DNA from: Balanoglossus misakiensis
Lineage: Eukaryota; Animalia; Hemichordata
Length of the DNA: 64,000 bases
Direction of reading: 5' to 3'
NCBI GenBank assembly: GCA_040954595.2
Contig: CM082579.2
Coordinates: 16,034,550 to 16,098,549 of the forward strand
The notes below the pieces were generated by a model, which saw only the letters and a list, made by a program, of their open reading frames with translations, did no database searches and was not told the DNA's origin. Both the position numbers and the translations under genes were made by a program. Numbering within the stretch: position 1 is the stretch's first letter; each line of letters opens with the position of its first letter. Shown one piece after another: positions 11,140 through 44,300 of this stretch.

Positions 11140-11250
11140 ATAAAGGTGTTGTTTGGCAGGACATGGTGTATTGGTTTCTGGCACCCATCTTGACTGAAAG
11201 AATTTTGATGAAATCAATTTGTAATTCTTGAGGGATGATATGTGTTTTAC

Positions 11251-15946: not shown

Positions 15947-15954
15947 TCTCTGAT

Positions 15955-16020: not shown

Positions 16021-17322
16021 ACAGTTATGTTCGTTTGCTAGTCTTTTCCGCTAGTTTCCTGCGAATCCACTGTCTCGTCTGTGTTATCTTTTTTAATTTA
16101 CTGTTTCCTAAACTCTTTTCGTGAACAAATTCTCTGGTTAGTTTACGTATTTCAGCCGATCATCCACAGAGAAAGTTCTCAACTTGAAATGATTGCTATT
16201 GATATGCTAATATGGCGCTCGCACGAAGTTAACTGAATGTCCATTTTGGGTGAGGGTCAGAGTTCGCTGGCTGGCTGTGTGGAAATCTAACTGGTACTCC
16301 TTGGAAAAGTGGCTGCAATTTGTAAACGGACAAGAAATTTTGTTCAGGAATTTAGTTTGGGAACAGAAAATAGTCAGTTCAGGGAGGTATAGGTCATTTT
16401 TTACTGTTCAAATGTTAACCCAAGTTGGGTTCCTGTTGGGAGTCCATAGCTGTTTGTTTTATGAGCCTACAGATAGTGAAACTGATAGTGACACAGCTGA
16501 AAAAACATGGGTTGATTACATTATTGGTTGGTTTCTATGGACACCTGCATTTCAATTAGATGTGGTGTTCTTGTTTTCATGTATAATGTTTGCACCTAAA
16601 GTGGTAAATTTAGGAACAAGTCTGCAGACCTTTTTCAGCAACAGTCAAAACGCAACTGTGTCATAATAATGCACTGGAATATGTTGAAAAGCTGAAAAAA
16701 AGAGAGTTCAACATAATTTAGAAAAGAACAAAAAGAAATGTAACAGATGATATACACTGTCATGGAATCTCCATGAATTTGATTGAACTCTTTATTTGAA
16801 CTTTGACTTTTCTTTCTAATGACATTCATGTAAATTTACATGATTTATTCCGATTTACCAACCAATTTATAAACTGTAATTTTACATTTTTTCACTATAA
16901 TGCCCCAATTTCGACTATGATATTTCACATTTGAATAAGGTATGATAAAATAAACAACTTTTGACAGTTAAGTTTACTACAGAAATTAAAAGAAACTTCA
17001 TCAAGAAGTCGCCAGATTTCATAACCGTTCATAGATTTCTGTCTGGGACAAATATAACCCAATTTGTTTCCATGTTTATTTGTTTTTCTAGTTTTGATGC
17101 AATAAGCCTGTTGTATATGTAATACTTGTCTGTGCAATTTTTGAGAACAATTAGAATTTCCTACCAAAATGGTAATAAACTGATAAAATGAACAATCTAA
17201 CAATTCAGATATTTTCCAATATAATTAGGATACAGTTAGGCCCTGAGCTATTCAGTTTGTGTCGATATACAACTAAACTGATACAATACTGGTGTTATAC
17301 CTTTGTTACACTTGCAGACATC

Positions 17323-23400: not shown

Positions 23401-26400
23401 GAACGTTGATTCACTATATATCCACACATATAATAACATAAACGGTGTCTTGTATCAAACATAATTAATGGAAAAGGGGCAGCAAGAGAGAGACATTGTC
23501 CCTTTAATGACCTATTTTCCAGAGTAAATCTGTCCTTTTGTTATGTGTAGTCCCAGGTTAGAACTATGGTTTGTAGTTTCATTGCCAAAGGTTTAAGGAT
23601 CCTCCTACGAGAACATCTGGTCTTTGTATAGTCAACATTGAGAAATGATTTTAGTATGGACTAAAACTCAGTAGTAAATAATTAACAGTTTCTTTATGCA
23701 TATGTGAGCTATGCTGATGTGCTTATCAATTTTCAGGGCATTTCTGTATTGTGTATTTTTTTTTTGTATTCCACAGCAAAACATTCTTTGAAAGCATCCT
23801 TTGTTAAAAAGAAGCTGCAACTGCAAGACAAAGAGTTCGAGCAGCAAGAGGAACCTGAACAAGAACAAGAAATGGTCAAGGTATAATGGCATGAATATTT
23901 TAACATGTGAAATTTAGTCTGCCAGTGATGTCATGGTTTGTAATACAGTGTGGCATACAGTATCTACTGGCGATGAATTGAAATCTTGACATTTCAACAA
24001 AATTTATGGGGAACAAAAAATATAGTTTAAGCACAAAACAGCAACATTTTACAAAATCATAATTACAGCCAGATAGATATTTCATTTTTTTATTTTCTGT
24101 TATAGGGTACTGACAATGAAAAGTTAGTGTCCTGTGATCCTGTGTCCTGTGATCCTGTGTCCTGTGATGGTGTCAATGAAGATGTAGAAGTGATTGCGGT
24201 TGAAAATTCTGTTGACATAACAGTGGTGGAGGAGGTGGCAGCTTCATGTGAGGAATCCATGAAAGAATGTACTGCTGAACAGGCATTGAATTCAGAACAG
24301 GTTAGACATGATTAAGGTGGCACTGCATGAAACCGTCGAGACTTTTTCAGAGGCCTATTTCTCATCAAAGAAAAAGTTAAAACCCCCATAAACCATATAT
24401 ATTCTGGAAGCTGAGATTTTGAACTTTTGTTTGAGTTGCAAATATTATTGATCCCCGGAAATGGTGGCGATTTTGGGTGAAAAAAAACATTTTTTTGATA
24501 TTATGTCATGAAATTTAAAATAGGTAAAACAGTTGACCATGCATCATGCATCTTAATATGTCATTCAAAACTAGAGTACACGTGCAAAAAAACGCTAATT
24601 TTGTTTTGCGTTATCTGCTTCCATTGAGGAGTAACAGCGTTTAAAAGTTAGATTTTCAGAAAATTTGATCAAATTCACGGTGAGTTGTATTGAATCAGAG
24701 TTTATTCCCGCCAGGGACACTTTATCGACAAACAAAACTAGCGTTTTGTTGGATGGGTCATACACAATTCCCTGTCAAAATTTGAGCAAATTCGGCCAAC
24801 GCAGGGCGAAGCTATTTTAGTCCGAAGTTGTCAAGAGCAGCGAAAATGCAAACTGAGAAAAACGGCTATTTGCATTGTTGACACCTATTTGTTAAGCTGT
24901 GAACTCATTCAGAAAAGTGCTATTTTGGGGTGATTATGCACCATTTCCGCCAAGACGTATTAGTCAGGTTGTGGGTCAGTATTAGGCCTACCGATTTATG
25001 TAAAAAAGTAAAATTTGGCAAAAATCACAACTTTTCATGCAATGCCACCTTAATTAACTACTATAAATGATGGAGCAGGTTCTCCGAATAAATATTCGAA
25101 TGATCAGGCACTTCTAGTCAATACCAATTGTATTTATTGGCAAAATGTCTATTCTGCTACAGTAATACCTGTCGAAACTGAACACCAAAGTGACTGAAGA
25201 AATTATTCCATTTGCAAAGGTGTCTGGTTTATAGGGGTTCTTTTAACATGTGGTTCCATGTCAAAGGGACAGGAACATGTGTTCAATATAGATAGGTTTC
25301 AAGATTAGACAGGTTTTACTGCTGCATGAGGAAATATGGGGACAGTCAGAGCAGATATGATGGAAAATAACTCTGACTGGTATTTGCAAAGGTGTTGAAA
25401 GATTATGGAATGACTCTTAAACAAATGGGGCTTTCACATGTGATGTTTAGGCCGCCCCTGGGGGATATTGATTAGTCTAAGGTATTAAATGGTATCAATA
25501 TTAACGTTACAGGAAAGAGAGAAACAAGCTCAAAGGAAATTGCAGAGGAAAGATGTAAGTTTAGTCGAATTTTGATTCTGAGTCATACATTTGACTGGAT
25601 TGGTTATACTCCTACACCAAAGTGACAGTTTGGGCAATGATGTTAATACTGGATTGAAACGTGTTGATTGTCTTTGTAGTTTTTGATAAATTCTTCATTT
25701 TTACATTTATAGGATAGTTTTTGATAAATTGTTAATTTTTAGGTCCAATGTCTAAAAATTTAAAGCTCAGAGGTGCATTCTACTAAATGTTTGTTTTGTA
25801 CTTTCTCATCCACATACCTATTTCACGTTAGGCAAGGCAATCTCTTCCCTAGGAACCAGTTAGTCAGTGAATTGTCTGCTCAGGTTATGACACTCAATGT
25901 GTTTATTTCTTTACAGGCAGCACAGGCCAGAGCCGAAAATATAAGATTGCCCTTGATTAACGAAAGGAAAAGACAAATCTGCATCATGGTGAACGATGAG
26001 GTCCTGGAAAGGCCATTCAGAGACCTAGATACACTCAAAGTAAGTCAAGATATGGGCCATCAAGTGTAAATTGTGTGTTTCATGTTCACTGTTCAAATAC
26101 AGTCCGTTGCAGCCTTACAATGTAAGGCATTTCTGAGTGTAACTGCAGTCATACCAAAATAAAGAAACCAAGGTTTGGATTAATCATCATATTCTAGCAT
26201 TATAATTGTAAACATAAAAGAATCTATTTGCTTTGCAGGATGTCTTTGATTGGATTTGCGGTACAGTTGATTCAGAAGATCTTCCTTGCAGATTTTTTCT
26301 GCAATGTTTCGATCCTCCCAACTGTGTTGATTTTCAGTGTCAGCATGAATACCATGCCACAGCTGAGGCTGACTTCCTTTTAGTAGAATATCTACCAGAA

Positions 26401-26770
26401 ATGATGCTAGTGAAAGAGGTAATTTAATAATTTTAAATTTTTTTGATGATATTTGCATATTTCGGTGTTTGCCAATTTTGAGAGATTGATCAACTGTCTT
26501 TTTTAGCAGTTTTATACTGAAAATCGAGTTGTCCAAAAATGCACAACATTCTTCAGTCTCGTGAAACAGAATCCAAATGTTCACATAGTACAGCTATTCT
26601 GATTACCAAGTTTTATTTCGCATCACAAAATGTCAGTACATACACATGAATATGATAAACAATGTTTTTTAATGCATGAAATCACTTTTTTATTTGTTCA
26701 ACAGATTAGTGGTGACCTGGATGACACCCTAACAAACTATGATGATGTTCTTCTGTGTGGGCTGTTTTGA
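20427..26770 (+). CDS. Spliced cargo gene, 9 coding exons, 388 aa, with an acidic/coiled-coil middle and a putative C-terminal UBX/ubiquitin-like domain
   Basis: Exons 20427-20457, 20676-20782, 21286-21604, 23777-23880, 24106-24300, 25513-25554, 25917-26039, 26239-26418 and 26705-26770. All introns are GT-AG and phase-compatible, giving 1167 nt from ATG to TGA. The segment ICIMVNDEVLERPFRDLDTLKDVFDWIC resembles the UBX core; this domain call is tentative. Confidence 0.75.
22249..22640 (+). mobile_element. HINE/DINE-1-like non-autonomous element in an intron; 3' end approximate
   Basis: aggtccca-hairpin-tgggacct followed by a (GTAT/GTCY)n microsatellite at 22302-22342. Confidence 0.5.
22776..23197. 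repeat. Two ~183-bp direct repeats (period ~239 bp)
   Basis: tcacctgt...attaattatgtgcatacctaattccaggctaaccaata...cttggcatccagagcag at ~22776-22958 and ~23015-23197. Confidence 0.85.
23219..23440. mobile_element. Degenerate palindromic MITE
   Basis: gaatcaacattcgaccacacacaacttccatt pairs imperfectly with aatggaaggtgtgtgtggttgaacgttgattc. Confidence 0.7.
24316..25049. mobile_element. Non-autonomous TTAA-targeting DNA transposon (Kolobok-like, GG..CC termini), 734 bp
   Basis: TTAA|GGTGGCACTGCATGAAA ... TTTCATGCAATGCCACC|TTAA: a 17-bp TIR with 1 mismatch and a TTAA TSD. Confidence 0.8.
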
Positions 26771-27037: not shown

Positions 27038-30000
27038 TTAGAAAAGTTCTTCAAGGCAAGGTGTCAAGTGCAAGTAGAGTTCTTTTGCTGCAAATGCTGT
27101 AGTGGGTTCATGATTCCATCCATTCATTTGGCATATGTTCCGTGCCACAACTGCGAAATCTTCATTGCAACCATTATTAAAGTTACACTGTGACTTGCAT
27201 AGCAAGAAAGTTTGAGAGCCAGCGTTGACTGAATGTATGTAGTTCCGACAATTAGGGCGGTCTGAAATAACAAAATATGTTTGTTCAAATAAGAATTTAT
27301 GTATGGGTTAAATACTATGAGGGTATTACGAAAATACTGCAAAGTATGCTCAAGGACATTAGCGCCACGTATCGCCTGATGCGTAGCGGAGGGCGATGCA
27401 CTATGCTAATGTCCAAATATATACTTTGTGGTATTTTCATAATAAAATTATTATTGTACATCTTACATCTCAGTTAGTTCTTGTGTTGCATATTATTTGG
27501 CTTTCAAAACGCTGGTACGATCAACCATAACCGATCAGCTGAAACACAGTACACAGTGAGCAGCCATCTTTCTTTTTTGTTTATATTGGAGTATCTATTG
27601 TTCTTGGTGCCAGATGTATATTAAGTTATTTTATTTTATTTACCTTAAGCAATGAAGTGATTGAAATGTTATTTTTCTATCATTCTCTGCAGATGTTATG
27701 TAATCTTGAGATTTTTGTTGAGGAAACTTTCCAATGTTCATGATTTATGCTTTAAACACTGCATGTCATTTACTTCATGGATAAGCCTTATGTTGACCTA
27801 ATGAGTGAAATACCCACATGACTTGTGATCTACATTCAGTCACAGGGTCCAGATTAGGTAGCATTTCTGCAATTTTAATGAATCTTTGTTGGTTTCTTTA
27901 TTTTGTTGCAATAAAAAAGTACCTAGTAACTCAGGACAGGTATAGAGAATTTCTGGAATGCCTGATACAGAATCTCCTTTATTTTGTCGCCTTATTCTGT
28001 GGTGGTTCCACCTCTCAACTACCTCATCCAGTTCCCTTTGCATGACAGAAAAATAACAAAACTGCATACTCATTCTGAAAGAAAAAATGCAAATTGATTT
28101 CAAGATGCTTGGGAATAATATGTGCATTTTATCATACTTAACAAATAGCATAATGTTACAAGTTTATGGAAATTCATCCAGTTAAAAATATGATTTCCAG
28201 CAGATCTACGGATTTCAAATGAACTGCAATATTTGATCTCCTGTCTATGTCTCTACCATCCTGTCTGTGTCTGTTTCTTCTCTGCTCTGTGCAAACATTG
28301 ACAGATTGAATAATGGAATTTCTTTCATTACTTGAAACAAAACATAAAGTGTATCAACTCACATGTTGACCGGGTCACCTAACTGCAAATGACCCATTGA
28401 TACCAAATCCTAGGGGATAAAAAATTGATAGTGGTGAATTTCCTGTAATGCTACAGTAAAATGTGTCAGTGAATGTGGTCTTGTACTTGTGTATAAACTG
28501 CCTGCAAGGCCATGGCCAGGAAAAAAAATGTTTGGAAAGCCTAGTCCTCATGTATAAAAACTCTGCAGGACAATTCAACATCATGATATGAACTGACTTG
28601 AGCTATACTGGTTATTTTTCTCATTCCTACACACAACTGCATCCACTAATGACATTGCATCTTGGGCTGTGGCACATTCTATGAGAATACAAATTTTGTC
28701 ACTTATACAACCATCTTTGTGTTTGAGTTGATTTTGTTTTGCAGAACACATTTGTACAAGCCAAATGATACTTTACCTTAAATGGTCAATCCACCAATCT
28801 GCACTTTTACTTCTTAACACACCCCACCATCGTTCAATACGCTGTAAGAAGAGATCACAATGAAAACAATGGTCTGACACAATTACTGTCACCACTCTGA
28901 ACAAACAAATGTGAAACACGATACCAAAAGTGTCTTTTTTGGATTATATTGTGAAACAAAAAACTGCACCAAATTTGAACAAAATTTGCTCAGGCATGCA
29001 GCAGCAATGGAATCGGTGACTGAAGTAGGGAAGATGGGGAGTCTATGAGGTTTGAGGATAGTCTCCTCAAGCATATAGTCATCTTAACAAGGTAGTGGAA
29101 AAATGGGTAGTATTAACAGTCTTTTTATCTCATGACACGGTACAGCGTAGGTATTCCTAAGAAAAATTGTGATGCCATTTGTCATATGTGGATAGAGGGC
29201 GCTGCGCATGCATGGTCGACAAGTTCAGCAACATCGTCTCTTGGTACGAGCCAAAAATCACTCCTTAGTTGGAACTTTTTTTCATCACCGGTCAATGTGT
29301 CGATTTTTGAAGGCGTGGACTATTAGCTGGCAACGGATTTTTGCGGAAGATTGCTGTAACTTTTTGTCAAAAGTGAGTTTTGATTTTTATCTATCAAGTC
29401 GAAGCCAGCACACAGAATCCTGCCGTTAGTTCCAGTCGATCTCATTATGCATGCAAAATAGTACTGGAATTCTGCTCCTTTGTTTAAAACCCACGTTGTG
29501 TAATCGAACACCTGTGCTCATTCACGATGCCGAGAAGAAAAGACCAAACACCATCTGGATCATCAGACTCTTGCCAATCAACACCTCCAGCTGGCACACC
29601 ACAATCAATAGAAAACCGGCTTGCTGAAATCTGTTCACATGTAAATCACATACCGGCACTATTGATCAGTATTGCTGAGCTCAAAGAAAGCCAAAGCACA
29701 ATACATTCGTCACTGGAGTTCTTCAACGGACTTGTAGAGGAAGTACGTGGACGAGTTTCTACTTTGGAGCTTGAAAATAAAGAAGTCAAAGAAACGAATG
29801 CACAGCTTTTCACTCGCATCACAGAGCTCGAGAAATCTATGGAAAGTATGAATCAATACAATAGACGTGAAAACATTGAACTTCATGGAATTCCTGAAAG
29901 TGCAGATGATGGAGAAAATACAGATGCAATCGTAACAAGAGTGCTAAAAAAGATCGATCCAGGTATCAGTGACCACGACATTGTGATTACCCACAGATTA

Positions 30001-33000
30001 GGTCAAAAGCATACAGGTGACAATGCTGCACCTACTTTCCCAAGACCAATCATTGTGCGATTCTTAAGCAGGAAGAAACGCGACTATATCCACCGGAACA
30101 AAAAGAAGCTAGCGACCATTACAACTGGAGATATTGGATATGCCAATCGGAACAAAATCTACGTAAATGAAAATCTAACTCCAAAAGCACGCAAACTTTT
30201 TAAGATGACGAACGTGAAGCGCAAATCAGCACGCTATAAGTATGCGTGGACGCGGAACGGTGAAGTTCTTGTGAAGAAAAGTGAGCAGTCACCTGTACTA
30301 GTGATAAGGAATGAGCTGGACCTTGCCAAGATTGTATAAACCATCTTGTAGACATTTTCTTGGTTTCCCATATATTGCTTCATGCCAAACTCAGTAAATG
30401 ACATAGATGATGACATTTTCACAGTTACAAATCATATACTGGAACCGTCAACATTTAATGATAAATTTAGCTCTAGATCCAGCCATTCTTTCTCAGTATC
30501 TCATATTAATGCAAGATCTCTCTGTAATAGTATAGACGATGTACGTCTCCTGTATAATGAATGTATCACCAGTCCTTTTCACATTATTGGTGTTTCAGAA
30601 ACCTGGCAAATCAATAATCAAACTTTTTTTAATTTGCCAAATTACTCTTTTGAGTTAAATAGCAGAAACATCGGTCGGGGTGGCGGGGTAGGGGCATATA
30701 TTCATTGTTCTCTTAAATACAAACTGTTAAACTTTAATGTGGTTCATTCTGAATCACTATGGTTTGAAATATGCGGGTTAAAGAATCGCATAGTTGTCGG
30801 TGTGTTATATCGCAAACCAGGAACTAGTGTCACAGAGTTTGAAGACAGTCTTTTTAATGTTCTTTGTTCTTTGAAACTGGATAAAAAACATTGTATTCTT
30901 ATGGGTGACTTTAATATTGATGTGTCAAGTCCAGATTCAAGTGCTCGGGATTTTATACCAAGGATGCAATGTCTTCATCTAGAACAGTTAATCTCCTCCC
31001 CAACTCGTATTACAAGTACTTCCAAGTCGACCATTGATCATATTTATTCCAATATTAGCTCTTGTCACATTGATGCTGGTACAATTATTGCTGATATTTC
31101 AGATCACTTACCTATTTTCTCTATTTTCAACAACTTCAATGTCCACACGCCATTTGTACGGTCAGTTTGTACAAGGAATTTCAGGCGCTATAACTCTGCT
31201 CGTTTTATTTCTGATTTAATTAATGTTAACTGGAACGTTGTTATGCATAACAATAGCTGTGTAAACACTGCTTTTGACACCTTCAGCAATTTGTTCAGCC
31301 AGGTGTGTGACCATCATGCCCCACTTGAGGTTAAAACTATTAAGGCCAAGTGTAACAAAAATCCCTGGATTACCAAAGCTATTAAGAAGTCAATTCGCAC
31401 CAAACGCAAACTATATGCTAAAGTTGTCACCACACAACATGAACCAAGTGCTGTTGCTCGCTACACAACCTACAGAAATATTCTTACAAGTGTTTTAAGA
31501 AAAGCCAAAAGGGTGTATTATGCTAATTTATTCACTGTAAACAACAATGGTAAAGTGTGGAATGTTGTAAATGAGTTGCTTGGTAAAAACACTACTTTAG
31601 ATAAAGCACCAGATCAGTTAAAGGTCAATGTAAATGGGATTGAAAGGTTGGTAGATAAGCCAGCTGATATGGCTAAGTGTTTTAATGACTTCTTTGTACA
31701 TGTGGGTCAAAATCTGGCAAAACACATTCCAAAAACCACAAAAGATTTTAAAAATTATATGAATGATCCTATGCCAAACTCTTTTTTTCTCCATCCTGTT
31801 ACGGTTGCTGAGATAAAAGAGATTTTGGTGCATCTTGACAGTAAAAAGGCCAGTGGGTGGGATAATATTCCTCCAAGACTCCTAATTGATGCAGCTGATG
31901 TTATTGCTCAACCTTTGACCCACATCATAAATATGTCTTTCTGTACCGGTGTCTTCCCTAATTCCTTAAAAGTCGCTAAGGTTAAACCTATCTTCAAGAA
32001 AGGAGAACAGAACATTGCTGGGAACTACAGACCCATCGCCATTTTATCAATGTTCAGTAAAGTGATAGAAAAAGTGGTAAACAAACAAGTGATTACTTAC
32101 CTTGATAAATATAATATATTATATAAGCACCAGTATGGCTTTAGAAAGAACCATAGCACCAAGCACACTTTGATTAACTTAGTTAACCACTTGTTAAAAG
32201 AAATTGATAAGGGGAATTCCACACTGGGGGTGTTTATTGACTTCAGCAAAGCTTTCGATACCATTCACCATGCCACTTTATTGTCCAAGCTTGAACATTA
32301 CGGGTTTAGGGGCCCCTGCCAGCATTGGTTTAACAGCTACCTCACAGACCGCTCACAGTATGTCACATTAACCAGTCATGTTTCAGAAAAGTCCTTGATC
32401 CACAATGGAGTCCCACAGGGATCAGTTTTGGGCCCAACCCTTTTCCTTATTTATATCAATGACCTTCCAAATTCTTCTACATTTTTTTATTTCCGTTTAT
32501 TTGCTGACGACTCCAATCTCTTCCATTCCTTCTCAGGTGCAGATAGTATTAACTTGACTCATATATCCTCTTATTTAAATGATGTTCAGCAATGGTGCAA
32601 TGCCAACAAACTAACAATTAATAGGGCCAAGACTCACTTTATTATTTTTAGGGGTCGGCAGAAAAAACTTAATGTTCTTGGGTCATTGCAAATCCAGAAT
32701 GAAGAAATCAAAGAGGTTGATGTGATACCATTTGTTGGGGTTTTATTGGATAAGCATCTGTCATGGTCACATCAAATTAACAAAATAAATAATCTCATTA
32801 GGAAGCACTGTGGAATTTTATACAAGATTAGAAATATTTTACCACTCCATATCAGAATTTTGTATTACAACGCCTTCATACTCCCCCATGTTACATATGG
32901 TCTTGAGGTTTGGGGCAATACTTACCCCACAAAGTTACGTTGTATCCAAGTTGCCCAAAAAACAATTGTACGTATAATGCTTTTCAAATCACACATGGAC

Positions 33001-36000
33001 CATTCTTCTCCTCTCTTTAATCAACTGAATATTTTGGATATTACCAAGCTTCACAGTTATTTACTAGGTTCCTTCATTTATTATTTATATCACCAGAAAT
33101 CTCCACATTCACTTTCAGATTATTTTAACACAACAAGTCATGAGCATAATACCAGAATTTGGTTACATCACTATCTACGCCCGTTCCATGCCAAAACAAA
33201 CTCAGGCCAGTTCTCGATATCACATACTGGAGCAAAAATCTGGAACGATATTCCTCCACAAATTAAGTCTTCAAATACTTTATGCCAATTTCGTAGGACA
33301 TTTAAACAACACCTCTTAAACCAGTACAAATGAATTTGTAATTTTCTTGATGTAGTATGATGCTGTTTTGTTTGTTTGTTTGTGATTGTTGTTCCTTTCT
33401 TTTTTCCATTACCATTTGCAATGGATAACTTTACACTGTTGTAGTGAGATCGTACTTGAATCACGCTTCAAGCGTTCCCTCAACATTATCTTTTTTTTTC
33501 TGTAACCAAGCAAGCTATATTGTAGGAGTACAGGCTAGACTAGCTGTGGCTATTTCCTGACTCCATATTTACCCACCATTTGTATTTTTACCTATCATAT
33601 GTACCCTTTAATTAATGGGTAAATAAAACATTATTATTATTATTATTATTATTATATAACTGACCTGGTTAGCAGTTGAAGGACCATACCAAAAGCTGTT
33701 GTCAGCAAAAGCATCATCACCATCTGTCCTCAACATGGCTTGAGCAGTCATTATCACTCCTGTTTCTGTGCCATGATCTGCTCGCAAGATCCTGGGGCAA
33801 CCTGCAAACAAATTAGGATTGACATTGGCAGCTCTTACAGTTAAAATGTTAACCCCCCCCCCCAAAAAAAAAAAAAAATTGTACACACTAGATTTAATTT
33901 TTAAGAAAGATTTTCATTCCAAATGCTTTACTGCCTACACGTAGTTTCAATGTTTTTCAACACAGCCTGGATATGTGAAGATCATTACAATGTTGCCACA
34001 GGAAATATTGGGTACAAGACTAATATGAGCATGCAATGGATAATTGTCATTGATTAGTGGTTGGCTAAATTTATCGCCTTTACCCAGTTCAGAAATGTCA
34101 ATAAAACAAATTTTGTCAAAATGATATGTTTAACAACCTTGAGTGAATGTGTCTATTACCTTTCAGCTTCTCAACTGTGTCTATGAAATAGGAAGCAACT
34201 TTGCTTGGATCATTGTTTGATGCACCAACTTTCAACCACAACACCCTTCGCGAAAATCTATAGAAAACAAAGTTATTATTAATTTTCAAATTAAAAAAGG
34301 AATAAGTAAATTTCATTGCATAAACATATTTCCACAGAATTGTTACTAAATGTGCTTCATTAATCTTAGCTTTCATCAATATTGTGATTCTCAAAAAACC
34401 AATGGTGTTACAATGGGTCTCCAGCATTCCTCAGAAAGGTTTGTATAGATGATAAGTTGATAGCACTTACCCATCGATGCAACCATGAATGGCAAATCCA
34501 TATGGAGATAGTTTATCATACCCATCTAAAAAAAAAAATCAAAACACAATGTCATACATGCCTAAATGTAGGGATAAACTGTTAATGCCATCTTGAAAAT
34601 TTGCAGTGCATTATGGGTCAATTGAGTTCCGGTTGGGGGGAGTAGCGTCTACAACCTATCCATTTCCAGCGGTTTAGTCAGATTTTCTTCATGTAACTAC
34701 TACTACTAACGTTACTTGAAGAAAATCTGACAAAACTGCTGGAAAATTGGATAGGTTGTAGACGCTACTCCCCCCCCCCCAACTGGGACTCAATTGACCG
34801 ATAATGCACTGCAAATTTTCAAGATGGCGTTAACACAGTTTATCCCTATATTTAGGCATGTATGACATATATATATATATATAATACGATTTGGGAGTTC
34901 GTTGCAAGTACTGCTGGCAGAGTGCTCGATGGTGTAAATCCAGAGCTTGATAGTAGAGTGTGCAAGGGAACTAAGGCTGTTTTGACATAGGCGGTGTATT
35001 ACTGTTCAGTTTCGTGTAAGCGGGGCCTACACTCGTCAGATACTGATGCCTGAATGATGGTGAAGGGTGTGGACAACAGGGAATTGGGTAGGGTGGATAT
35101 GCAAATGGGCCTACATTTGAATGGGAGTGTGTATTGATTGGGGCTGTGTGGAGGGGTGCTGATTGGCCAGATTCTTCAGGAGGAATTTGCTGGAGTGGCG
35201 GCATGTGCTGACGAGTTCGTTACGTTTGTTGAGTGTGGCTAGTTTTGGTTTGCATATGATGAAATATTTTTCCCAAAGACATAGGTTGCATCTGTTGCTG
35301 GTGGGGGTATAGGGGCTAGCTTGTTTTATTGTTTTCCATGTGATTTTGTGTTCTATGTGCTCGTCCTTTAGTTTCCAAGTTCTGTACTGTTCTTTTTGGC
35401 GGCGTTCCTGAATGAGTCCTTGTGGTTGTTGAAGCGGGTCTTGAAGGTGTTGGCAGTTAGTCCGACGTAGGTTTGGTCTGGCTTGCTATCCTGCGTAGTA
35501 ACGGTGGCTTGGTATACAATTGATTCGGTCAGGCAGTGTCCTGACATTGGGCAGTTTGCAGGTGACCGGCAGTTGCATTGTTTTTTAGTGCTGTTGTCGT
35601 TGTTGCTGGAAAGTACCGATTTGTTGTGATTCTGGATGGTTTGTGCTGTGTTGCTCATGGTGCTGTAGCTTATTTTTACTGTGTTCCGGTTGAATATCTT
35701 GTGGAGGGTGTGGCTTGGTGGGAATTCTTCGTTAATTATTTTGAGGAACTCTCTCCCTATATGTGTGGCGACGTTTTTACTGTACGGTGGGGTGTACCAT
35801 ATTATGTTCCTGCTGCGGTTTCTCTTGTGGGCTTGTGGTTGTTCTGTTGGCGGCGTGAATTTCAGTTCATGTTTGTATCCGCTTTTGTAGATGGCCTGTT
35901 GGTATAGTGGTGCGGCCGTGTTGAAGCATTCGTCGTCATATGAAATTTCTGAGAGTCGCTTGTTGATGGATTCTGGTATGTTTTTAGGATTCCTGGTGGG

Positions 36001-38320
36001 TGGTTTGATTTGCTGTGGACGTATTGCGGTATGTTGTTGGGTTTCGTGTAGGGCTGGTATTTTCCGGTGGTTAGGTTCAGGGTGGTGTCGAGAAAGTTCA
36101 CAATTTTTTTGTTGGCTTCGATTGTGATTTTCAGTCCATATTGGTTGAAGATGGCGCAGAGGTCTTTCTTTTTGCGTTCCACTTGTCGTGCTGACGCCTT
36201 GATTATACCGAGGCCGTCGTCCCTGTATAGGCCAAATTGGTTGCCGTGTTTTTTGGTGATCTCGTGGAGTATGAATGTGCCGACAAGCTCGCATGTTTCG
36301 GCGCCATCGTAGCTCCCCATGGTTACGTCAAATAGGTTGGATGATGATTTTTTCGTCCATTGTTCATTTTCGTTGAAGAGGCATGATCTCTTGGCATGGG
36401 TGATAATTTCTTTTTCGTCATTGGTGATATTATCATGGTTGGATGCAAATTCCAGCGCTGTGTTGAGCAGGTCGGCCGAGATGGATGGGTAAAAGTCTAC
36501 CACATCGAATGCAATGAATGAATATTGGTGCTTGTTGGGGATGCTATTAAACCATTTTAGGACTGCTTTGGTGCTCTTCCATTGGTTGAGACCTGTCTTT
36601 GTGATGACTTTCTTGTTGATTCTGTCTAGTATTTGTTTGCTGATTTTTCCGATTTCTGATTTTGCTGGGTTGATGAGACGGCATGTAGGCTTGTTTTTGA
36701 AGTTGGGCTTATGGTCTTTCAGGGTTATGAATGCTTCCCTTTTGGCTGTGGTGTTGATTCTGTCACCAAGGTCTAGTTTTGCTGCAATGTGGGCGGCGTC
36801 GGTTTCGATCATTTTGGTGGTTTCCGGGGGGACCTTCTTATATGACTTAGTAATGTTCTTGCTTAGTAAGGTATTGTAGGAAGGGGGGTCCATCTTGTAA
36901 AAGTTGTTGGATTTGTCTGCTGGTGCGAGGAGGTCCTGGGATTTCTTGATTTTGCTAACATCTGATGCTAGTTGTCTTTGGAAGCGGCAGTTAATATTTT
37001 GAAATTTTATGTTTTCGATCATGTTCAGCAGCCTGCCTTCAAAGCTTACCAATTCTTGAATTTGCGGTGGTGTCTTTTTTTAGTTGAATCCGTATGTTTC
37101 TTTGTTTATGGCACGTGTTTCTGGGTTTAGAAAGAAGTAGGCTTTCCATCTCATGCGTCTGCATAGGTGCTCGGTTTTTTCTATCAGTTTCCTGTTGTAC
37201 TCACGTTCTGATGGTAGTCCGATGTTCTTCGTTGAATAGTCAAAACTTCTGGGTTCCATGACAGTGGTATTTGCGAAGAGTGCTCGACACAAAGGAGCGT
37301 AGTAATACGATTTGGGAGTTCGTTGCACGACGAATGCTTCAACACGGCCGCACCACTATACCAACAGGCCATCTACAAAAGCGGATACAAACATGAACTG
37401 AAATTCACGCCGCCAACAGAACAACCACAAGCCCACAAGAGAAACCGCAGCAGGAACATAATATGGTACACCCCACCGTACAGTAAAAACGTCGCCACAC
37501 ATATAGGGAGAGAGTTCCTCAAAATAATTAACGAAGAATTCCCACCAAGCCACACCCTCCACAAGATATTCAACCGGAACACAGTAAAAATAAGCTACAG
37601 CACCATGAGCAACACAGCACAAACCATCCAGAATCACAACAAATCGGTACTTTCCAGCAACAACGACAACAGCACTAAAAAACAATGCAACTGCCGGTCA
37701 CCTGCAAACTGCCCAATGTCAGGACACTGCCTGACCGAATCAATTGTATACCAAGCCACCGTTACTACGCAGGATAGCAAGCCAGACCAAACCTACGTCG
37801 GACTAACTGCCAACACCTTCAAGACCCGCTTCAACAACCACAAGGACTCATTCAGGAACGCCGCCAAAAAGAACAGTACAGAACTCAGTAAATACATTTG
37901 GAAACTAAAGGACGAGCACATAGAACACAAAATCACATGGAAAACAATAAAACAAGCTAGCCCCTATACCCCCACCAGCAAGAGATGCAACCTATGTCTT
38001 TGGGAAAAATATTTCATCATATGCAAACCAAAACTAGCCACACTCAACAAACGTAACGAACTCGTCAGCACATGCCGCCACTCCAGCAAATTCCTCCTGA
38101 AGAATCTGGCCAATCAGCACCCCTCCACACAGCCCCAATCAATACACACTCCCATTCAAATGTAGGCCCATTTGCATATCCACCCTACCCAATTCCCTGT
38201 TGTCCACACCCTTCACCATCATTCAGGCATCAGTATCTGACGAGTGTAGGCCCCGCTTACACGAAACTGAACAGTAATACACCGCCTATGTCAAAACAGC
38301 CTTAGTTCCCTTGCACACTC

Positions 38321-38418
<98 letters not shown>

Positions 38419-40570
38419 TAGTGGACAACAAAGGGACCGAAGAACTGTTTTGTTTGCAAAGGTAATTAGTTCATAGAGTTTATTTTAACTTGTGGTTCTG
38501 TGTCAAAGGGACTGAAAAATTTGTTTGGTAAGGACAGGTGTCCATGTTCAGAAGGTCCGGTTTAGACAGGTTCAGACTGTACAATCAGTTAATTTGCTTA
38601 CCAATGTGCCATACATAATTTGGTCCTTTACATCTGTACTCACGCCGTATTAACCGGCGATGCAGGCGTCGTTGAACGTTTATTGGATCCAGGATCCTAA
38701 GAAGTTTTCGTACAGTCTCCCTACAAAAAAAGAAATCTATTTATTACATATTTTAATAAAATAAGAATAATCTGCAATTTAATTGAAATGAGATTTGTAA
38801 TAAATCTGGGCCAAAGTTTTTATTCAATGAGTGAAATAGATTTGACATCTGCACTTCAACTTTAGATTAGCAGGGAGAATTAGGAAACAAGTCCATCACC
38901 TGTTATTTTCTTGCCAAGGGAGCTTATTCAAATAGCATTTCCCTTACATCAATCAGCCATTTCAAATAAAAGACCCTTGTTGATGATATCAATGAACACT
39001 TATGTTTGCATTATTGTTTTTATCATTCCAGTATTACAAAAAAAATTTTTTTACCTTTTAACCATCAATTGGTGCTTAGTTCTCAGGATAGCTAGCATTT
39101 CATTGGCTCCAACAATGCAGCCAGACCCTGTATTCAGTTCTGTCTGTAAATGAATAAAGGAAAGGATGGTTGGATAGATTGATAGATGTGTGAACAAATG
39201 AATGAACACATTCAATATTAGAATAGCTGACATTCACAGTTGAAAAAATTAGTTAATAAAATGTGACATAAATCGAATACTTTTGAAATTGCTTCTAATC
39301 CATGCAAGTGGTAGAACACAAACAACTGACATAAATGAATTAATTTCCTAGCAACAATGTCCCTCGCATATCTGCCCAAATGACAAAAGGGTGACCAGGA
39401 AAATGGAGTTCTTCTGCAAGATGTTCAGAATTTGATTTTAATTTGTTATACTGAATGTGTGCAATTAAGTCAGACTTGGGAAGTGGTGTCACTAATTAAA
39501 TGTAGGTTAGGGTAAAGAGCTTAACATACAAGCACAGCAGAAACAATGTCATCAAAAGATGACTGTGCTCTTCTCCCTTTTCGATAGAGTCCAAGGTGAT
39601 GGAGGAATTTGCGCTTGAAGTATGAAAACCTACAGAGTCAAAATAAAGTGAGAGTGAGTTGTACACTAAAGGGATAACATAAAAGGAAGAGACTGGTCAT
39701 TACACAATTTCCAAGTAACAGATAATAAAATAATGTAAGTTTACCACTCAAAAGTAAAGTTATTATGTTTTTAATGCTGTTTACCTCAAACGGAATCCAT
39801 GTTGTTTTACCATTACATAATAAATTAATTTGTGTGTATAACCATACGAGAAATACTTCTTAATGAGTTCCCTTTGCTCTGTAAGAAAATAATATTCACA
39901 AGTGACTTGTGTAAAATTGGCAATCTAACATAAAAGGAAATTATCTATCTGTTTGCATTAAATGCAGTATTTTGGTTTCAGGTTTTAGGTGTACATGTAC
40001 CCCTATTCTACAGCTTTGAAGAGCCAACCCCATCAAGGAACCATTCTGTTTTTTATCTAAGCATTAAATAGTGGTTTCATATATCCATGTAAATGCTGTT
40101 GTTTCATAAGAATTGGCCAGTTATTGTGCTATTTCCCAATTCATTCTAATGCTAGTTTGCATAGCTAAGTGCCAGTAAACAGTTAATTTGCCAGACTTCA
40201 CCAACATAATAATAATTCATTGTAGCAATCTAACACTGAGTGGGAAATAAATGGGAATTCAATTTCAACAAAATTAATCTGATTATTGCTGAATTTTAAA
40301 AGCTGAGAATTTCATCATGTTTAAATGCTGAACAAGAAACTGAAATAAACTGAGAACATAATAGTTGCTAGCCTGGTCTCCATACCCAGTGTGTTTTATA
40401 GATAGACTCGCACACTAGGTATGGATACCAGGCTATAGTTGAAATCTTAAGACACAGTAAAGCTTCAAATCTGATCAATGCCTTTCCTTCTTTCAATGTT
40501 TAGAAAGAACATGTAAAGTAACGTCATAAAATTCATAATGAAACTTACCTAGAGTAGCCATAATTCTCAT
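27038..40570 (-). CDS. IS3EU-like DDE transposase (integrase-core type), 12 exons, ~400 aa, one apparent 1-nt frameshift
   Basis: Exons 40570-40549, 39878-39785, 39629-39530, 39143-39055, 38720-38602, 34525-34471, 34257-34160, 33801-33665, 28841-28777, 28409-28363, 28074-27923 and 27261-27038, all with GT-AG introns. The spliced protein contains GPNYVWHI[D]GYDKL...[15 protein letters not shown]...PRILRA[D]HGTE...STANQRI[E]RWW...WNHHRIR. Ten of 11 junctions are in phase; exon 9/10 is 1 nt short. Confidence 0.88.
29527..30339 (+). CDS. LINE ORF1 protein (coiled coil + RRM-like/C-terminal domain)
   Basis: 270-aa ORF with a heptad region and motifs [32 protein letters not shown] and YKYAWTRNG. 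Confidence 0.9.
   Translation: MPRRKDQTPSGSSDSCQSTPPAGTPQSIENRLAEICSHVNHIPALLISIAELKESQSTIHSSLEFFNGLVEEVRGRVSTLELENKEVKETNAQLFTRITELEKSMESMNQYNRRENIELHGIPESADDGENTDAIVTRVLKKIDPGISDHDIVITHRLGQKHTGDNAAPTFPRPIIVRFLSRKKRDYIHRNKKKLATITTGDIGYANRNKIYVNENLTPKARKLFKMTNVKRKSARYKYAWTRNGEVLVKKSEQSPVLVIRNELDLAKIV
30382..33333 (+). CDS. LINE ORF2: AP endonuclease + reverse transcriptase
   Basis: Uninterrupted 983-aa ORF. APE motifs HINARSL, SETW, MGDFN, TIDH and SDHLP; RT motifs [22 protein letters not shown] and LFADD. Confidence 0.97.
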   Translation: MPNSVNDIDDDIFTVTNHILEPSTFNDKFSSRSSHSFSVSHINARSLCNSIDDVRLLYNECITSPFHIIGVSETWQINNQTFFNLPNYSFELNSRNIGRGGGVGAYIHCSLKYKLLNFNVVHSESLWFEICGLKNRIVVGVLYRKPGTSVTEFEDSLFNVLCSLKLDKKHCILMGDFNIDVSSPDSSARDFIPRMQCLHLEQLISSPTRITSTSKSTIDHIYSNISSCHIDAGTIIADISDHLPIFSIFNNFNVHTPFVRSVCTRNFRRYNSARFISDLINVNWNVVMHNNSCVNTAFDTFSNLFSQVCDHHAPLEVKTIKAKCNKNPWITKAIKKSIRTKRKLYAKVVTTQHEPSAVARYTTYRNILTSVLRKAKRVYYANLFTVNNNGKVWNVVNELLGKNTTLDKAPDQLKVNVNGIERLVDKPADMAKCFNDFFVHVGQNLAKHIPKTTKDFKNYMNDPMPNSFFLHPVTVAEIKEILVHLDSKKASGWDNIPPRLLIDAADVIAQPLTHIINMSFCTGVFPNSLKVAKVKPIFKKGEQNIAGNYRPIAILSMFSKVIEKVVNKQVITYLDKYNILYKHQYGFRKNHSTKHTLINLVNHLLKEIDKGNSTLGVFIDFSKAFDTIHHATLLSKLEHYGFRGPCQHWFNSYLTDRSQYVTLTSHVSEKSLIHNGVPQGSVLGPTLFLIYINDLPNSSTFFYFRLFADDSNLFHSFSGADSINLTHISSYLNDVQQWCNANKLTINRAKTHFIIFRGRQKKLNVLGSLQIQNEEIKEVDVIPFVGVLLDKHLSWSHQINKINNLIRKHCGILYKIRNILPLHIRILYYNAFILPHVTYGLEVWGNTYPTKLRCIQVAQKTIVRIMLFKSHMDHSSPLFNQLNILDITKLHSYLLGSFIYYLYHQKSPHSLSDYFNTTSHEHNTRIWLHHYLRPFHAKTNSGQFSISHTGAKIWNDIPPQIKSSNTLCQFRRTFKQHLLNQYK
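34549..34868. mobile_element. Palindromic MITE (~320 bp hairpin)
   Basis: atgtcatacatgcctaaatgtagggataaactg... is matched by ...cagtttatccctatatttaggcatgtatgacat, with arms of ~150 bp. Confidence 0.85.
34989..35051 (-). ncRNA. Type I hammerhead ribozyme (minus copy)
   Basis: Reverse complement of 38225-38287. Confidence 0.85.
35111..37259 (-). pseudogene. Penelope-like RT-GIY-YIG ORF, disrupted
   Basis: RT motifs [14 protein letters not shown] and LYRDD; endonuclease motif IVYQATV...YVG. Lesions are an in-frame TAA at 37080-37082, a frameshift near 35985, and a 13-nt deletion near 35378 relative to the plus copy. Confidence 0.88.
37327..38165 (+). pseudogene. 5'-truncated inverted Penelope copy with an open GIY-YIG frame
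   Basis: 280-aa open frame (CNCR..CP...[19 protein letters not shown]) that lacks the RT and a true start codon. Confidence 0.8.
38225..38287 (+). ncRNA. Type I hammerhead ribozyme (plus copy)
   Basis: gtat-CTGACGA-gtgtaggc-ccc-gcttacac-GAA-actg-aa-cagt-A-atac: complete core, stems I-III, GUA cleavage triplet, and stem I extended by aggc/gcct. Confidence 0.87.
38324..38416. repeat. (TA)n microsatellite
   Basis: Pure TA tract of ~90 bp. A shorter partner tract lies at ~34868-34883. Confidence 0.98.
40369..40435. mobile_element. Mini hairpin element TAGCCTGG..CCAGGCTA
   Basis: tagcctggtctccatacccagtgtg pairs with cacactaggtatggataccaggcta. Confidence 0.7.
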
Positions 40571-40865
40571 CAGCAACAGTTGCCTTGGAGTAGCATGTTG
40601 ATCTTATGCGCATGCTCTGTACGAACATCGGTTGACCACATGATAACAAACGTAAAAATTATAATTTGCTAATAACAATAATTTATTTAAAATATCTAAG
40701 CCTATAACGTTGAAAGACTTTTAGCTCAGTGTTCTAACAAATGCATGGGAGACCTAGCAGCAGTTCAGCATCTCGAGATTTTGCCTTGTGATTTACTCTT
40801 TGACTACAAAACCTTAACTAAAGAGGAGACCGAGAAGAAAAGGCCGCTGTCCAAAATCGCCGACA

Positions 40866-41100
40866 ACTCTTTAGCTGAAACGCCAATGCGCATGTGTAGA
40901 ATGCCGGTGCGACAAAACTCTCCAGAAACGCCGATGCGAGAAAACTCTAGCTGAAACGCCGATGCGCATGTGTAGAAATGCCGGTGCGACAAAACTCTCC
41001 AGAAACGCGGATGCGACAAAACTCTCCAGAAACGCCGATGCGACAACTCTCTAGCTGAAACGCCGATGCGATAACTCTCCAGAAACGCCGATGCGAGAAC
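40866..41100. repeat. Right subterminal array
   Basis: Inverted ~26-bp modules (gaaacgccgatgcgacaaaactctcc) in a different order from the left array. Confidence 0.9.
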
Positions 41101-41305
41101 TCATCAAATCACCGGTTGTGATTTTGTCGGCGCCGGTAGATTGAGTAAAGGTGTCGGCAAAAATTTGGTTGTTACCGGCATTTTAGATTACGGCGTCGGC
41201 ACCCAATGTGCGTCATATTTTCAGCATATGCGTTCCTATCATTTGTCTATGGACTTTACCCATGTATTGAGAGAAGTTGTCGGGGGTCCCCAACGGCTTT
41301 CCATA
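41081..41305 (-). repeat. Right TIR (225 bp)
   Basis: Ends ...cggctttcCATA, followed by the TSD ACAGAC and resumed satellite. Confidence 0.95.
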
Positions 41306-44300
41306 ACAGACACTAGCGTTCGTTAGCAACGGTAATCAAGTCGGATTTCCTTCGGCCTGGCTCTGCAAAAGACCCGACACTCTAGTACAAAGAAGTTGGC
41401 TAAGTCGGGCAAACCGAACAGGGAAAGTCACAGCGGGTCAACACTCGACATTTGTTCCGGTAGGACTGCATTATTGCCTGTCAATTTATAGAGAAAGCCC
41501 GAATTTAACCAGGGCGTTTCAAACACCGACGTTAGTTGGGGCACGGCCTGCAGTACTGCCGGGTAAGCTGACATCAGCGTACCGCATATAATGTAGGGGG
41601 GGGGGGAACAGAACGGTTAAATACTACATTTATCAGATATCAGCTAATTTTGGACAATCATCTAAAATGTAAATCATCTTTTCATATTTGGATATCTGAT
41701 GATGTATGACATTTCCATTATATGTAAAAATGGTGCTGATTACAAAAATGCACTCTGAATGAGCTGATTTAACGCAAAATTGCGTTTTATTCGTTTTTGC
41801 ACCAAAAAGGTCATTTTTAGGCAAAACATTCTTTATTTTTTTAATTCGGTGACCTGATCATATATAAACAATTGCTTGTATGTTAAAAGTTTTTATGACT
41901 TTTAAAAGCAGTGACACTGGCGGCATTCAACACGAAAATAACAATTTTAGCCACAATTTGGTCAAAATGGTAAATTTTTGAAAATTACAAAAAATACCTG
42001 TTTTCTACATTTTCGGAAATCTGATGGAGTATAGAATGCTCTTCGTATGTATATATCGATACAAATTCCACAAAAGACCGTCTAATTTGGCTCACTGCAG
42101 ACAAAATTGCGTTTTACAAAATTTTCCTTGAAAATGTCATTTTTAGAAAAAAAAAATAAAAAAAACTTTTATCTTCGAATTTGGTGCCCTGATCATATAT
42201 GACATGTTGATTGTATGTTAAAACTTTCGACCACTCCAAAAATGCAGAGATATTAACGGAATTCAAGAAAAAATAGCCATTTTGGCCATATTTTGACAAA
42301 AATGGTAAATTTTTAAAAAATCATAAAAAATTAACTCTTCTTCATTTTCGGAAATATTATGGAGCATGAAGTGTCGTTCTCTTGTAAAAAGTGCTGCAAA
42401 TTCCAGAAAAGGCGGTATAATTTGAATCACCCAAGACAAAATTACCATTTTCGACTTTTTTTCGAAAAATTGTCTTTTTTACAAAATAAATAAGAATAAA
42501 TTCTTTTCTTAGTTTCAAACGGGTAGAGATACTTTCCACACGGGTTTTCTAACATTGAATTCCCGTTCATCAACTCAGATTTCCTACAGCATAAGTCGGC
42601 TAAAACCCTAAGACTTTAGAGCAGAAACAGTTGCACACTGGTAACGTTGAACAAGTCGATTTTTCTACGGCCTGGCTCGGCTAAATCTCCGTCACAATAT
42701 GACAGACACTAGCGTACGTTAGCAACGGTGATCAAGTCAGATTTTCTACGGCATGGCTTGGATAAAGCCCCGGCACTCTAGAGCAGAAACACGCGTACAG
42801 AGACCACGTTGATCTACTCACATTTCCTTCGGCCTGGCATGGCTGATGCCCCGGCACTATATATAGGACACAGACTGGCGTAAGTTAACAACGGTAATCA
42901 CGTCGGGTTTCCTACGGCCTGGCTCAGCTGAAGCCCCGGCACTCTAGAGCAGAAACAGGCGTACATTGACCACGTTGATCAAGTCAGATTTCCTACGGCG
43001 TGACTCGGCTGGTGCACCGGCTCTATATGACACAGACTGGCGTGAGTTATCAACGGTGATTACGCCGGATTTCCTACGGCATGGTTTAGCTGAAGCCCCG
43101 GCACTTTAGAGCGGAAACACGCGTACATTGACCACGATGATCAAGTCAGATCTCCTACGGCCTGGCTCGACTAAAACCCCGGCACACCATGACAGACACT
43201 AGCGTTCGTTAGCAACGGTGATCAAGTCGGATTTCCTTCGGCCTGGCTCTGCAAAAGACCCGACACATTAGTACAAAGACGTTGGCTAAGTCGGGCAAAC
43301 CGAAGAGGGAAAGTCACAGCGGGTCAACACTCGACATTTGTTCGGGTAGGACTGCATTATTGCCTGTCAATTTATAGAGAAAGCCCGAATTTAACCAGGG
43401 CGTTTCAAACACCGACGTTATTTGGGGGCACGGCCTGCAGTACTGCCGGGTAAGCTGACATCGGCGTACCGCATATAATGTAGGGGGGGGGGGACAGAAC
43501 GGTTCAATACTACATTTATTAGATATCAGCTAATTTTGGACAATCATCTAAAATCTAAATCATTTTTTTCATATTTGGATATCTGATGATGTATGAAATT
43601 TCCATTATATGTAAAAATGGTGCTGATTATAAAAAATGCACTCTGAATGAGCTGATTTAATACAAAATTGCGTTTTATTCGTTTTTGCACCAAAAAGGTC
43701 ATTTTTAGGCAAAACATTCTTTATTTTTTTAATTCGGTGACCTGATCATATATAAGCAATTGCTTGCATGTTAAAAGTTTTTATGACTTTTAAAAGCAGT
43801 GACACTGGCGGCATTCAACACGAAAATAACAATTTTAACCACAATTTGGTCAAAATGGTAAATTTTTGAAAATTACAAAAAATACCTGTTTTCTACATTT
43901 TCGGAAATCTGATGGAGTATAGAATGCTCTTCGTATATATATATCGATACAAATTCCACAAAAGACCGTCTAATTTGGCTCACTGCAGACAAAATTGCGT
44001 TTTACCAAATTTTCCTTGAAAATGTCATGTTTAGAAAAATAAAATAAAAAAACCTTCGTTCTTCGAATTTGGTGCCCTGATCATATATGACATGTTGATT
44101 GTATGTTAAAACTTTCGACCACTCCAAAAATGCAGAGATATTGACGGAATTCAAGAAAATATAGCCATTTTGGCCATATTTTGACAAAATGGTACATTTT
44201 TAAAAAATCATAAAAAATAAAACTCTTTTCTTCATTTTCGGAAATATTATGGAGCATGAAGTGTCGTTCTCTTGTAAAAAGTGCTGCAAATTCCAGAAAA

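Follow-up and report, generated by a model that had tools for sequence, protein, structure and literature searches.

A twelve-exon transposase gene, one base out of frame, within a probable IS3EU/GingerRoot element in satellite DNA of Balanoglossus misakiensis

What kind of gene lies scattered as small exons over 13.5 kb, encodes the catalytic residues of a DDE transposase and misses its reading frame by a single base? The question is raised by a stretch of 64,000 nt from the hemichordate Balanoglossus misakiensis (GenBank assembly GCA_040954595.2, contig CM082579.2, positions 16,034,550 to 16,098,549 of the forward strand), which is called the window here and in which positions are counted from the first letter. 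With a probability of about 0.72, we take the gene to encode, in 12 exons, the DDE transposase of a complete IS3EU/GingerRoot element of 25.9 kb situated in satellite DNA, and the window to hold a recently disabled copy from a family that keeps the frame in its dominant form. The work is computational throughout, and published systems are cited from those parts of the papers that were available, to which the statements made about them extend.

The transposase gene and its introns

The gene was rebuilt on the minus strand, between 40570 and 27038, from 12 exons of 22-224 nt, and all 11 introns have GT-AG borders. The exons are as follows, P0002 (Ptychodera flava XP_070548835.1) and P0004 being homologous proteins.

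40570-40549 (22 nt), minus strand: exon 1, 7 codons, the least-supported exon, with a second in-frame ATG at 40561
39878-39785, minus strand: exon 2, P0002/P0004 alignments
39629-39530, minus strand: exon 3, P0002/P0004 alignments
39143-39055, minus strand: exon 4, P0002/P0004 alignments
38720-38602, minus strand: exon 5, whose last base is the first base of the D142 codon
34525-34471, minus strand: exon 6, completes the D142 codon
34257-34160, minus strand: exon 7, P0002/P0004 alignments
33801-33665, minus strand: exon 8, second catalytic Asp, D201
28841-28777, minus strand: exon 9, catalytic E241 and a 1-nt deletion near 28779
28409-28363, minus strand: exon 10, P0002/P0004 alignments
28074-27923, minus strand: exon 11, WNHHRIR motif, introns on both sides at positions common to distant relatives
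27261-27038 (224 nt), minus strand: exon 12, carries the stop codon

A protein search with exon 11 as query gave 289 matches at E <= 0.001, 150 of which were listed, and the choice of query biases these 150 proteins toward relatives that have the exon. The best long match among them is P0002, with 76% identity in a gap-free BLASTP alignment of 326 columns (query residues 75-400) that spans junctions 4-11, its gene model being without the first 74 residues of the window's protein; P0004 aligns over residues 10-400 with 42% identity. Since the gap-free alignment crosses these junctions and P0004 aligns as well, the 12-exon structure is not a product of chance, and the proposal of an initial annotation of this DNA, that exons of 22-224 nt splice into ~400 aa, is upheld. 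The complete catalytic triad that it described is likewise present, D142, D201 and E241 being invariant in all 46 aligned rows.

In a quick tree (homologues only, no Repbase sequences), P0002 is sister to the window's transposase (SH-aLRT 99). The Pfam profile rva_4 was passed by all seven homologues scanned (114 bits for P0002), and of nine transposase exons submitted singly, one gave an rva_4 match below cut-off (exon 11, E 0.001). The core motifs match, by eye, those of Repbase IS3EU-1_DR1p, IS3EU-1_HM1p and IS3EU-4_CGi_2p, as far as these rows were available (PMC12730594, supplement), with VWHIDGYDKL, GCIDGFSR, R.D.GTE and ST.NQRIE.WW in common; the first catalytic Asp, at residue 142, falls inside the range of 100-300 that defines IS3EU/GingerRoot. 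No HHCC was seen ahead of the DDE core on inspection of the window's translation, and the viral contigs searched held no relatives of the transposase. P0002 was folded as a 76% identical stand-in for the window's protein, and the top Foldseek matches of its AlphaFold model (pLDDT, the predicted local confidence, 78.4) are prototype foamy virus (PFV) integrase, IstA, TnsB and Rous sarcoma virus (RSV) integrase, with E between 3e-4 and 1e-3. Its neighbours in the Atlas are eukaryotic rva_4 clusters, and a sequence-profile search of the PDB with A1 gave no match at E 0.1. The comparison with IS3EU and rve-type proteins that had been suggested at the outset therefore turned out favourably: sequence evidence supports the window's gene as coding for an IS3EU/rve-type DDE transposase in which the catalytic triad is complete, and the core of this enzyme is predicted to have an RNase H-like integrase fold. 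Annotated gene models of its relatives exist in bivalves and an acorn worm, and a word of caution for annotators is in order, as such transposase genes resemble host genes.

The exons sum to 1,202 nt (3n+2), one base below a 400-codon frame, and their splice yields 400 aa when the break is read through as X. The phases disagree solely where exons 9 and 10 meet (codon 259, 18 codons past E241); there P0002 reads WWIDHFKE and 44 of the 46 aligned rows have F, so that the single lesion reported at the end of exon 9, with H-F-K as the restored reading, is confirmed. As assembled, the mRNA loses its frame at codon 259, and translation would end in exon 10, past residue 269 and 168 nt ahead of the last junction. 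By the 50-nt rule, a stop more than 50 nt ahead of the last junction leads to nonsense-mediated decay, and the mRNA of the window's copy would therefore likely be removed in this way. The splitting of the D142 codon (G|AT) by a ~4-kb intron also proved correct; this is intron 5 (4,076 nt), which holds a Penelope-like element. Intron 8 is longer still (4,823 nt), and it contains a full-length long interspersed element (LINE) that was absent from the initial annotation. Upstream of the gene, an 8-codon open reading frame (ORF) at 40596-40570 (minus strand), whose stop overlaps the transposase ATG, may dampen translation.

The view that 11 introns are high for a transposase was not supported. Specifically, when the 150 proteins listed from the exon 11 search were scored with a full-length profile, 35 of 79 hits with at least 8 unmatched trailing residues stop at 326-328, which is the exon 11/12 junction, and 38 of 65 hits with unmatched leading residues start at 273-277, which is the exon 10/11 junction; by these match boundaries, at least two intron positions are common to relatives of 40-55% identity, a kind of hit that an exon 11 query favours. 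Metagenome loci were taken as the best 80 of 519 by E-value, a set biased to intronless and transcript-derived contigs, and the whole transposase is one stop-free ORF in 36 of the 80, a count that gives no estimate of intronless frequency. Among these loci, L071 is genomic and holds a complete element (55-5166; 5,112 bp) with 244-bp terminal inverted repeats (TIRs), a 6-bp target-site duplication (TSD), a single 398-aa transposase ORF and a HECT-like ORF; L045 (533-7148) holds a near-complete IS3EU, its TSD unmatched, whose TIRs enclose a HECT-like gene and a transposase without introns. Because L071 is intronless and the window's gene has 11 introns, intron number in the superfamily ranges from 0 to 11.

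DDE transposases of other superfamilies contain introns too, with 11 exons in Dada-U6_DR (PMC3706591), 0-4 introns in Ginger1 (PMC2836005) and 1-6 exons in CACTA (PMC4158355). Intron density is 27.5 per 1,000 codons in the window's transposase against ~7 in Dada-U6_DR; eleven introns in 400 codons are dense, yet the count has precedent. In two of the metagenome loci, part of the transposase 5′ region is repeated in inverted orientation downstream of the gene (L014:4741-5076 and L055:4539-4874), which could yield hairpin RNA.

The element and its satellite site

The transposase gene lies inside an element of 25,920 bp (15386-41305) that begins with TATGG (15386) and ends with CCATA (41305). Its TIRs are perfect over 225 bp, identical at 237 of 240 positions and 91% identical over 470 columns that include the subterminal region. 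ACAGAC stands on both flanks as a 6-bp TSD, and the reconstructed 60-nt empty site was found 13 times, with 1 mismatch, in the satellite array, which establishes the TSD as real. IS3EU/GingerRoot elements are defined by TA..TA ends and a 6-bp TSD (PMC10045372), and those of rust fungi end in TAYGG..CCRTA (PMC12730594). As the ends, the 6-bp TSD, the TIRs and the core motifs all match this definition, the element is, by its sequence, an IS3EU/GingerRoot DNA transposon. The features of the element and its site are listed below.

15380..15385, plus strand: left TSD ACAGAC, matching the right TSD and the empty sites
15386..15854, plus strand: left TIR and subterminal 27/78-bp repeats, beginning with TATGG
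40862..41305, minus strand: right subterminal repeats and TIR, ending with CCATA on the plus strand
41306..41311, plus strand: right TSD ACAGAC, matching the left TSD and the empty sites
5183..12651, plus strand: tandem duplicate of satellite and the element's left 4.7 kb (7,470 bp, 99.96% identical, 1 mismatch, 1 gap)
15964..16014, plus strand: probable first exon of a transcript from the left end, followed by a strong donor (16015) and adding 17 codons in phase 0 should its ATG serve as the start (crude splice score)
17188..18609, plus strand: intronless BTB-BACK-PHR ORF, 473 aa, Pfam BTB, BACK and PHR above cut-offs
20427..26770, plus strand: gene 2, 9 exons, 388 aa, open frame, convergent with the transposase, 8 of 8 introns GT-AG
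20427-20457, 20676-20782, 21286-21604, 23777-23880, 24106-24300, plus strand: gene 2 exons 1-5, splice model
25513-25554, 25917-26039, 26239-26418, 26705-26770, plus strand: gene 2 exons 6-9, splice model
29190..33655, plus strand: full-length non-LTR (long terminal repeat) retrotransposon lying within intron 8 in antisense orientation relative to the transposase, ends approximate, (ATT)n tail
34549..34868, no strand: palindromic insert in intron 5 resembling a miniature inverted-repeat transposable element (MITE), self-inverted at 87.6%, high depth in the sequencing runs
34880..38416, minus strand: broken Penelope-like element in intron 5, with a 1-kb inverted duplication and a (TA)n end

The element measures ~16.9 kb once four large inserts are subtracted. 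Both ORFs of the intron 8 LINE, which we take to be of CR1/L2 type, are open (ORF1, 29527-30339, Pfam Baculo_FP_2nd; ORF2, 30382-33333, endonuclease and reverse transcriptase, RT), and its tail is ~10 nt from the exon 8 donor. The inverted duplication of the intron 5 element pairs 34950-35936 with 37327-38326 at 98.6%; its Penelope name is assumed from RT and GIY-YIG motifs, and Pfam gave no relevant match in it.

The flanking satellite (1-7915, 12652-15385 and 41306-64000) is CpG-rich, and its units of 81/162 bp are arranged in a higher-order repeat of ~1.9-2.2 kb. The 7,470-bp duplicate carries a second left end (7916) and a second BTB ORF; the duplication, which spans 5183-20120, arose either by unequal exchange in the very recent past or as a product of the assembly. 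Within the satellite, (ATT)n runs at 46722 and 52576 begin 8 nt past the same target hexamer and resemble the tail of the intron 8 LINE. A GCATGCGC motif, presumably NRF-1-like, occurs at 15962, 29204 and 40608, just ahead of the likely first exon at both element ends and also where the LINE has its 5′ end.

The missing base and the copies of the element

The inspection of 28777-28783 that the initial annotation had suggested was made on contigs from three sequencing runs (X1, X2 and X3) of one sample, none recorded as RNA, which may differ from the source of the window. In the contigs of both X1 and X2, an additional A follows 28779 and restores the transposase frame, at full local depth (692 of 692 in X1; 2,687 of 2,687 in X2); run X3 gave no contigs over the transposase exons. 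It follows that the dominant form of the family keeps the frame in the 3′ half of the transposase. Over the 16 long contigs of X1 (14,191 bp in all), 22 substitutions and 3 indel events (1, 4 and 5 nt) set the window apart, a divergence from the dominant form of ~0.15%, and only one 1-nt gap is found among the 307 homopolymer runs of at least 4; an assembly prone to indels would be expected to show the opposite proportion. Both tandem copies carry the variants of the left 4.7 kb, among them a T4-to-T3 change at 16037, and this fits a real diverged copy. Of the two explanations offered at the outset, homopolymer error or recent deletion, the latter is thus favoured, and the missing base is probably a real deletion private to the window copy. 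Some points weigh against this conclusion: no read carrying the deletion was seen in the X1 and X2 contigs (contigs drop rare variants), an assembly error is a possible source of the missing base, and the in-frame dominant form covers the 3′ half only, exons 1-5 not having been compared and exon 8 falling between listed contigs.

If the missing base were instead a short-homopolymer consensus error, the copy would be an intact autonomous transposon. Both informative runs show the in-frame allele only, the lesion site is a T run, and gene 2, the BTB ORF and both LINE ORFs are open between perfect TIRs and TSD; however, the homopolymer is short (3 versus 4), a similar change stands at 16037 in both tandem copies, and a solitary 1-nt gap in 307 runs (>=4) has to be set against 22 substitutions in 14.2 kb, so that we hold such an error to be unlikely, though worth bearing in mind. 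Far less probable is a regulatory frameshift, repaired by an alternative donor, a micro-exon or recoding. It could draw on the position of the lesion, 2-5 nt from a donor site, and on the weak donor scores at two transposase introns (-0.1 and 0.1), but the DNA contigs of the dominant form include the base, F is conserved at codon 259 (44 of 46 rows), and on inspection the next GT downstream falls past an in-frame stop; there is hardly room left for this idea.

The runs also bear on how many copies exist and how they arose. Depth in X1 is ~575-1,000 and about even over the transposase, gene 2, BTB and LINE, compared with 17-167 for contigs in which shared MITEs are linked to different flanks. 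The element may accordingly be present in roughly ten or more copies, with the counterweight that depth is no copy number. The LINE has the same depth in X1 as the transposase exons, and no contig junction skipping it is among those listed; most copies of the DNA transposon therefore likely carry it. A TTAA-flanked MITE-like insert (24312-25053) is missing from one X2 contig, and 310 bp at 16590-16901 are skipped by contigs in X1 and X2, indicating structural variants among the copies. Multiplication may have been passive, by unequal exchange within the satellite after one insertion, which is compatible with reading the gene as that of a transposon. The 7,470-bp tandem duplicate of satellite and left end speaks for it, as do the equal depth of LINE, BTB and exons and the absence, among the contigs listed, of loose ends with varied flanks at 15386. 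Nevertheless, the window copy is ~0.15% from the dominant form as against 0.04% from the tandem duplicate, the structural variants just described exist, and the dominant transposase frame has been kept, so passive growth is a minority possibility, albeit a sizeable one. The large number of introns would be accounted for if the gene were a transposase-derived host gene, domesticated and present once, and annotated gene models of relatives are available in bivalves and an acorn worm. This is largely refuted by the perfect TIRs, TSD and empty sites; the high and even depth, the intron positions common to distant relatives and the location in satellite DNA also oppose it, and we consider it very improbable.

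Returning to the preferred reading, a mobile element with a recently disabled transposase, the transposase from an intact copy would bind the 225-bp TIRs, excise the element and insert it with a 6-nt stagger, in the manner of integrase-type DDE enzymes. The window copy would be non-autonomous and moved in trans by the transposase of intact copies; because its ends are perfect, it could still be movable despite its broken gene, and broken copies of Styx are mobilised in trans (PMC10853768).

Partner gene, passenger and known systems

Gene 2 faces the transposase, with 268 bp between the two stop codons. Its C-terminal region consists of a helix and a weak UBX-like part, without HECT; residues 248-335 score only 12.3 bits on the UBX profile of the relatives, a value reached by none of 2,000 shuffles (maximum 7.5). 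Among the 25 relatives' loci with at least 2.5 kb downstream, an opposite-strand HECT-like ORF is present in 19 (12 of them profile seeds; 7 of the 13 others match) and a UBX-like one in 7. Pfam matches above cut-off in 23 submitted ORFs of the relatives were HECT in 10 and UBX in 2, and the alignment of the relatives' partners matches the FAF1 helix-UBX at E 5e-13. Gene 2 is likely the regular partner gene of the family in reduced form, a helix-UBX adaptor for p97 that lacks the HECT ligase found in relatives. What tells against this is that none of the gene 2 exons scanned singly had a Pfam UBX match, that hhalign probabilities for the UBX likeness were 0.1-2.7% (single-exon comparisons), that the N-terminal half matches none of the relatives' other domains and that word-index searches with exons 3 and 8 found no homologues of gene 2, which is weak evidence.

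HECT gave no profile match, motif or tblastn match in the element, where small divergent exons could escape. An alpha-kinase partner, as would be expected from rust-fungus IS3EU, was not found, there being no Pfam kinase match in gene 2 (seven of nine exons singly) and no motif to be seen in the 388-aa splice. Sequence searches of the PDB found no match to exon 3 or exon 7, and for exon 8 one to complement factor H at chance level; exon 3 folded alone was unusable (pLDDT 41). In the partner ORFs of five relatives (L005, L006, L012, L020 and L060), two conserved N-terminal regions without a Pfam match precede a FAF1-like helix-UBX, and these regions look SAM-like and ubiquitin-like by eye only. 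The partner of L005 matched only unnamed clusters in the Atlas, under 0.9.

The BTB-BACK-PHR protein is probably 428 aa long, from an ATG at 17323 after an acceptor at 17318. Its ORF matches KBTBD2, BTBD2 PHR and SPOP in the PDB, and its domain order (BTB, BACK, PHR) is that of BTBD1/2/3/6-type CUL3 adaptors; from this family membership we assume that it binds CUL3. Homologues of the protein were not found in a word-index search, which is weak evidence. The gene is likely a captured CUL3-adaptor passenger. Its ORF is open in both window copies and has a stop at 17351 (9881 in the duplicate) in the dominant X1 and X2 contigs, the reverse of the situation at the transposase lesion; this stop in the dominant form suggests that the BTB gene is dispensable. 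From the donor at 16015, splicing could lead to the BTB gene (17318) or to gene 2 (20427, in phase with its first exon), so that the BTB gene may sit in the first intron of gene 2.

ClpX dismantles the transpososome of phage Mu. FAF1-type UBX proteins, in the literature available, assist p97 in dismantling ubiquitylated complexes on DNA. As a working guess, the partner proteins might steer ubiquitin/p97 toward disassembly of the complex of transposase and DNA, or toward removal of silencing factors of the host; more speculatively, a transposon-borne helix-UBX might take the transposase off once strand transfer is complete, or displace silencing factors. We regard it as doubtful, though worth stating, that an active IS3EU lineage has swapped its ubiquitin toolkit, having lost HECT, kept a FAF1-like helix-UBX for p97 and captured a CUL3 adaptor. 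If that were true, a eukaryotic transposon would bring its own machinery for disassembling the transpososome or destroying silencing factors, in an element that homes to satellite DNA and ferries an intact LINE. The partner genes point to ubiquitin/p97 control of transposition, on which literature searches, covering listings, found no paper.

Literature searches likewise found no biochemical test of IS3EU, whose structure and function are described as largely unexplored in a study that places IS3EU-like repeats at putative centromeres of Hydractinia (PMC11934779). Papers on HECT, UBX or BTB genes in IS3EU elements were not found either, as far as the parts available go, PMC5718144 included; Repbase Reports may cover them. 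With ends placed to the base, its TSD and empty sites, a complete gene model and evidence for a family form that is in frame, the locus is a candidate for a first mobility assay.

Among known systems, the element appears to agree with IS3EU/GingerRoot on every feature tested: its ends, 6-bp TSD, TIRs and DDE core are common to Repbase IS3EU-1_DR, IS3EU-1_HM, IS3EU-2_SK and IS3EU-4_CGi and to GingerRoot, and its 9-exon gene 2 fits the second, opposite-strand gene of the superfamily, for which a two-protein ancestor has been stated (PMC10853768). At 25.9 kb (~16.9 kb without inserts) it is to be compared with 3.9-12.9 kb in Selaginella GingerRoot, and its TIRs of 225 bp with 100-150 bp (PMC6839031). 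GingerRoot carries gene fragments and prefers gene-poor DNA (PMC6839031); the element in the window differs from IS3EU/GingerRoot in its 11 introns, in a UBX-like second gene without kinase or HECT and in a whole BTB-BACK-PHR passenger. Cargo-bearing fungal IS3EU elements, namely those of rusts with an alpha-kinase partner and a TET/JBP dioxygenase passenger (PMC12730594), Styx and the Intons (PMC3520738), share with it a convergent partner and an extra captured gene, but the pair in rusts is alpha-kinase and TET/JBP, whereas both genes in the window's element are likely ubiquitin-system adaptors. The HECT-carrying animal IS3EU elements at L005, L012, L020, L045 and L071 have transposases 36-47% identical to that of the window and, like it, a convergent partner gene; these loci keep a HECT with its C-terminal cysteine motif, and the transposase of L071 is intronless, whereas the window's element has no HECT and 11 introns. 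The hidden, intron-rich transposase one base short of intact is probably ordinary decay of one copy, and what is particular to the window locus is the combination of a HECT-less UBX-like partner, a BTB passenger, reciprocal lesions and a satellite site.

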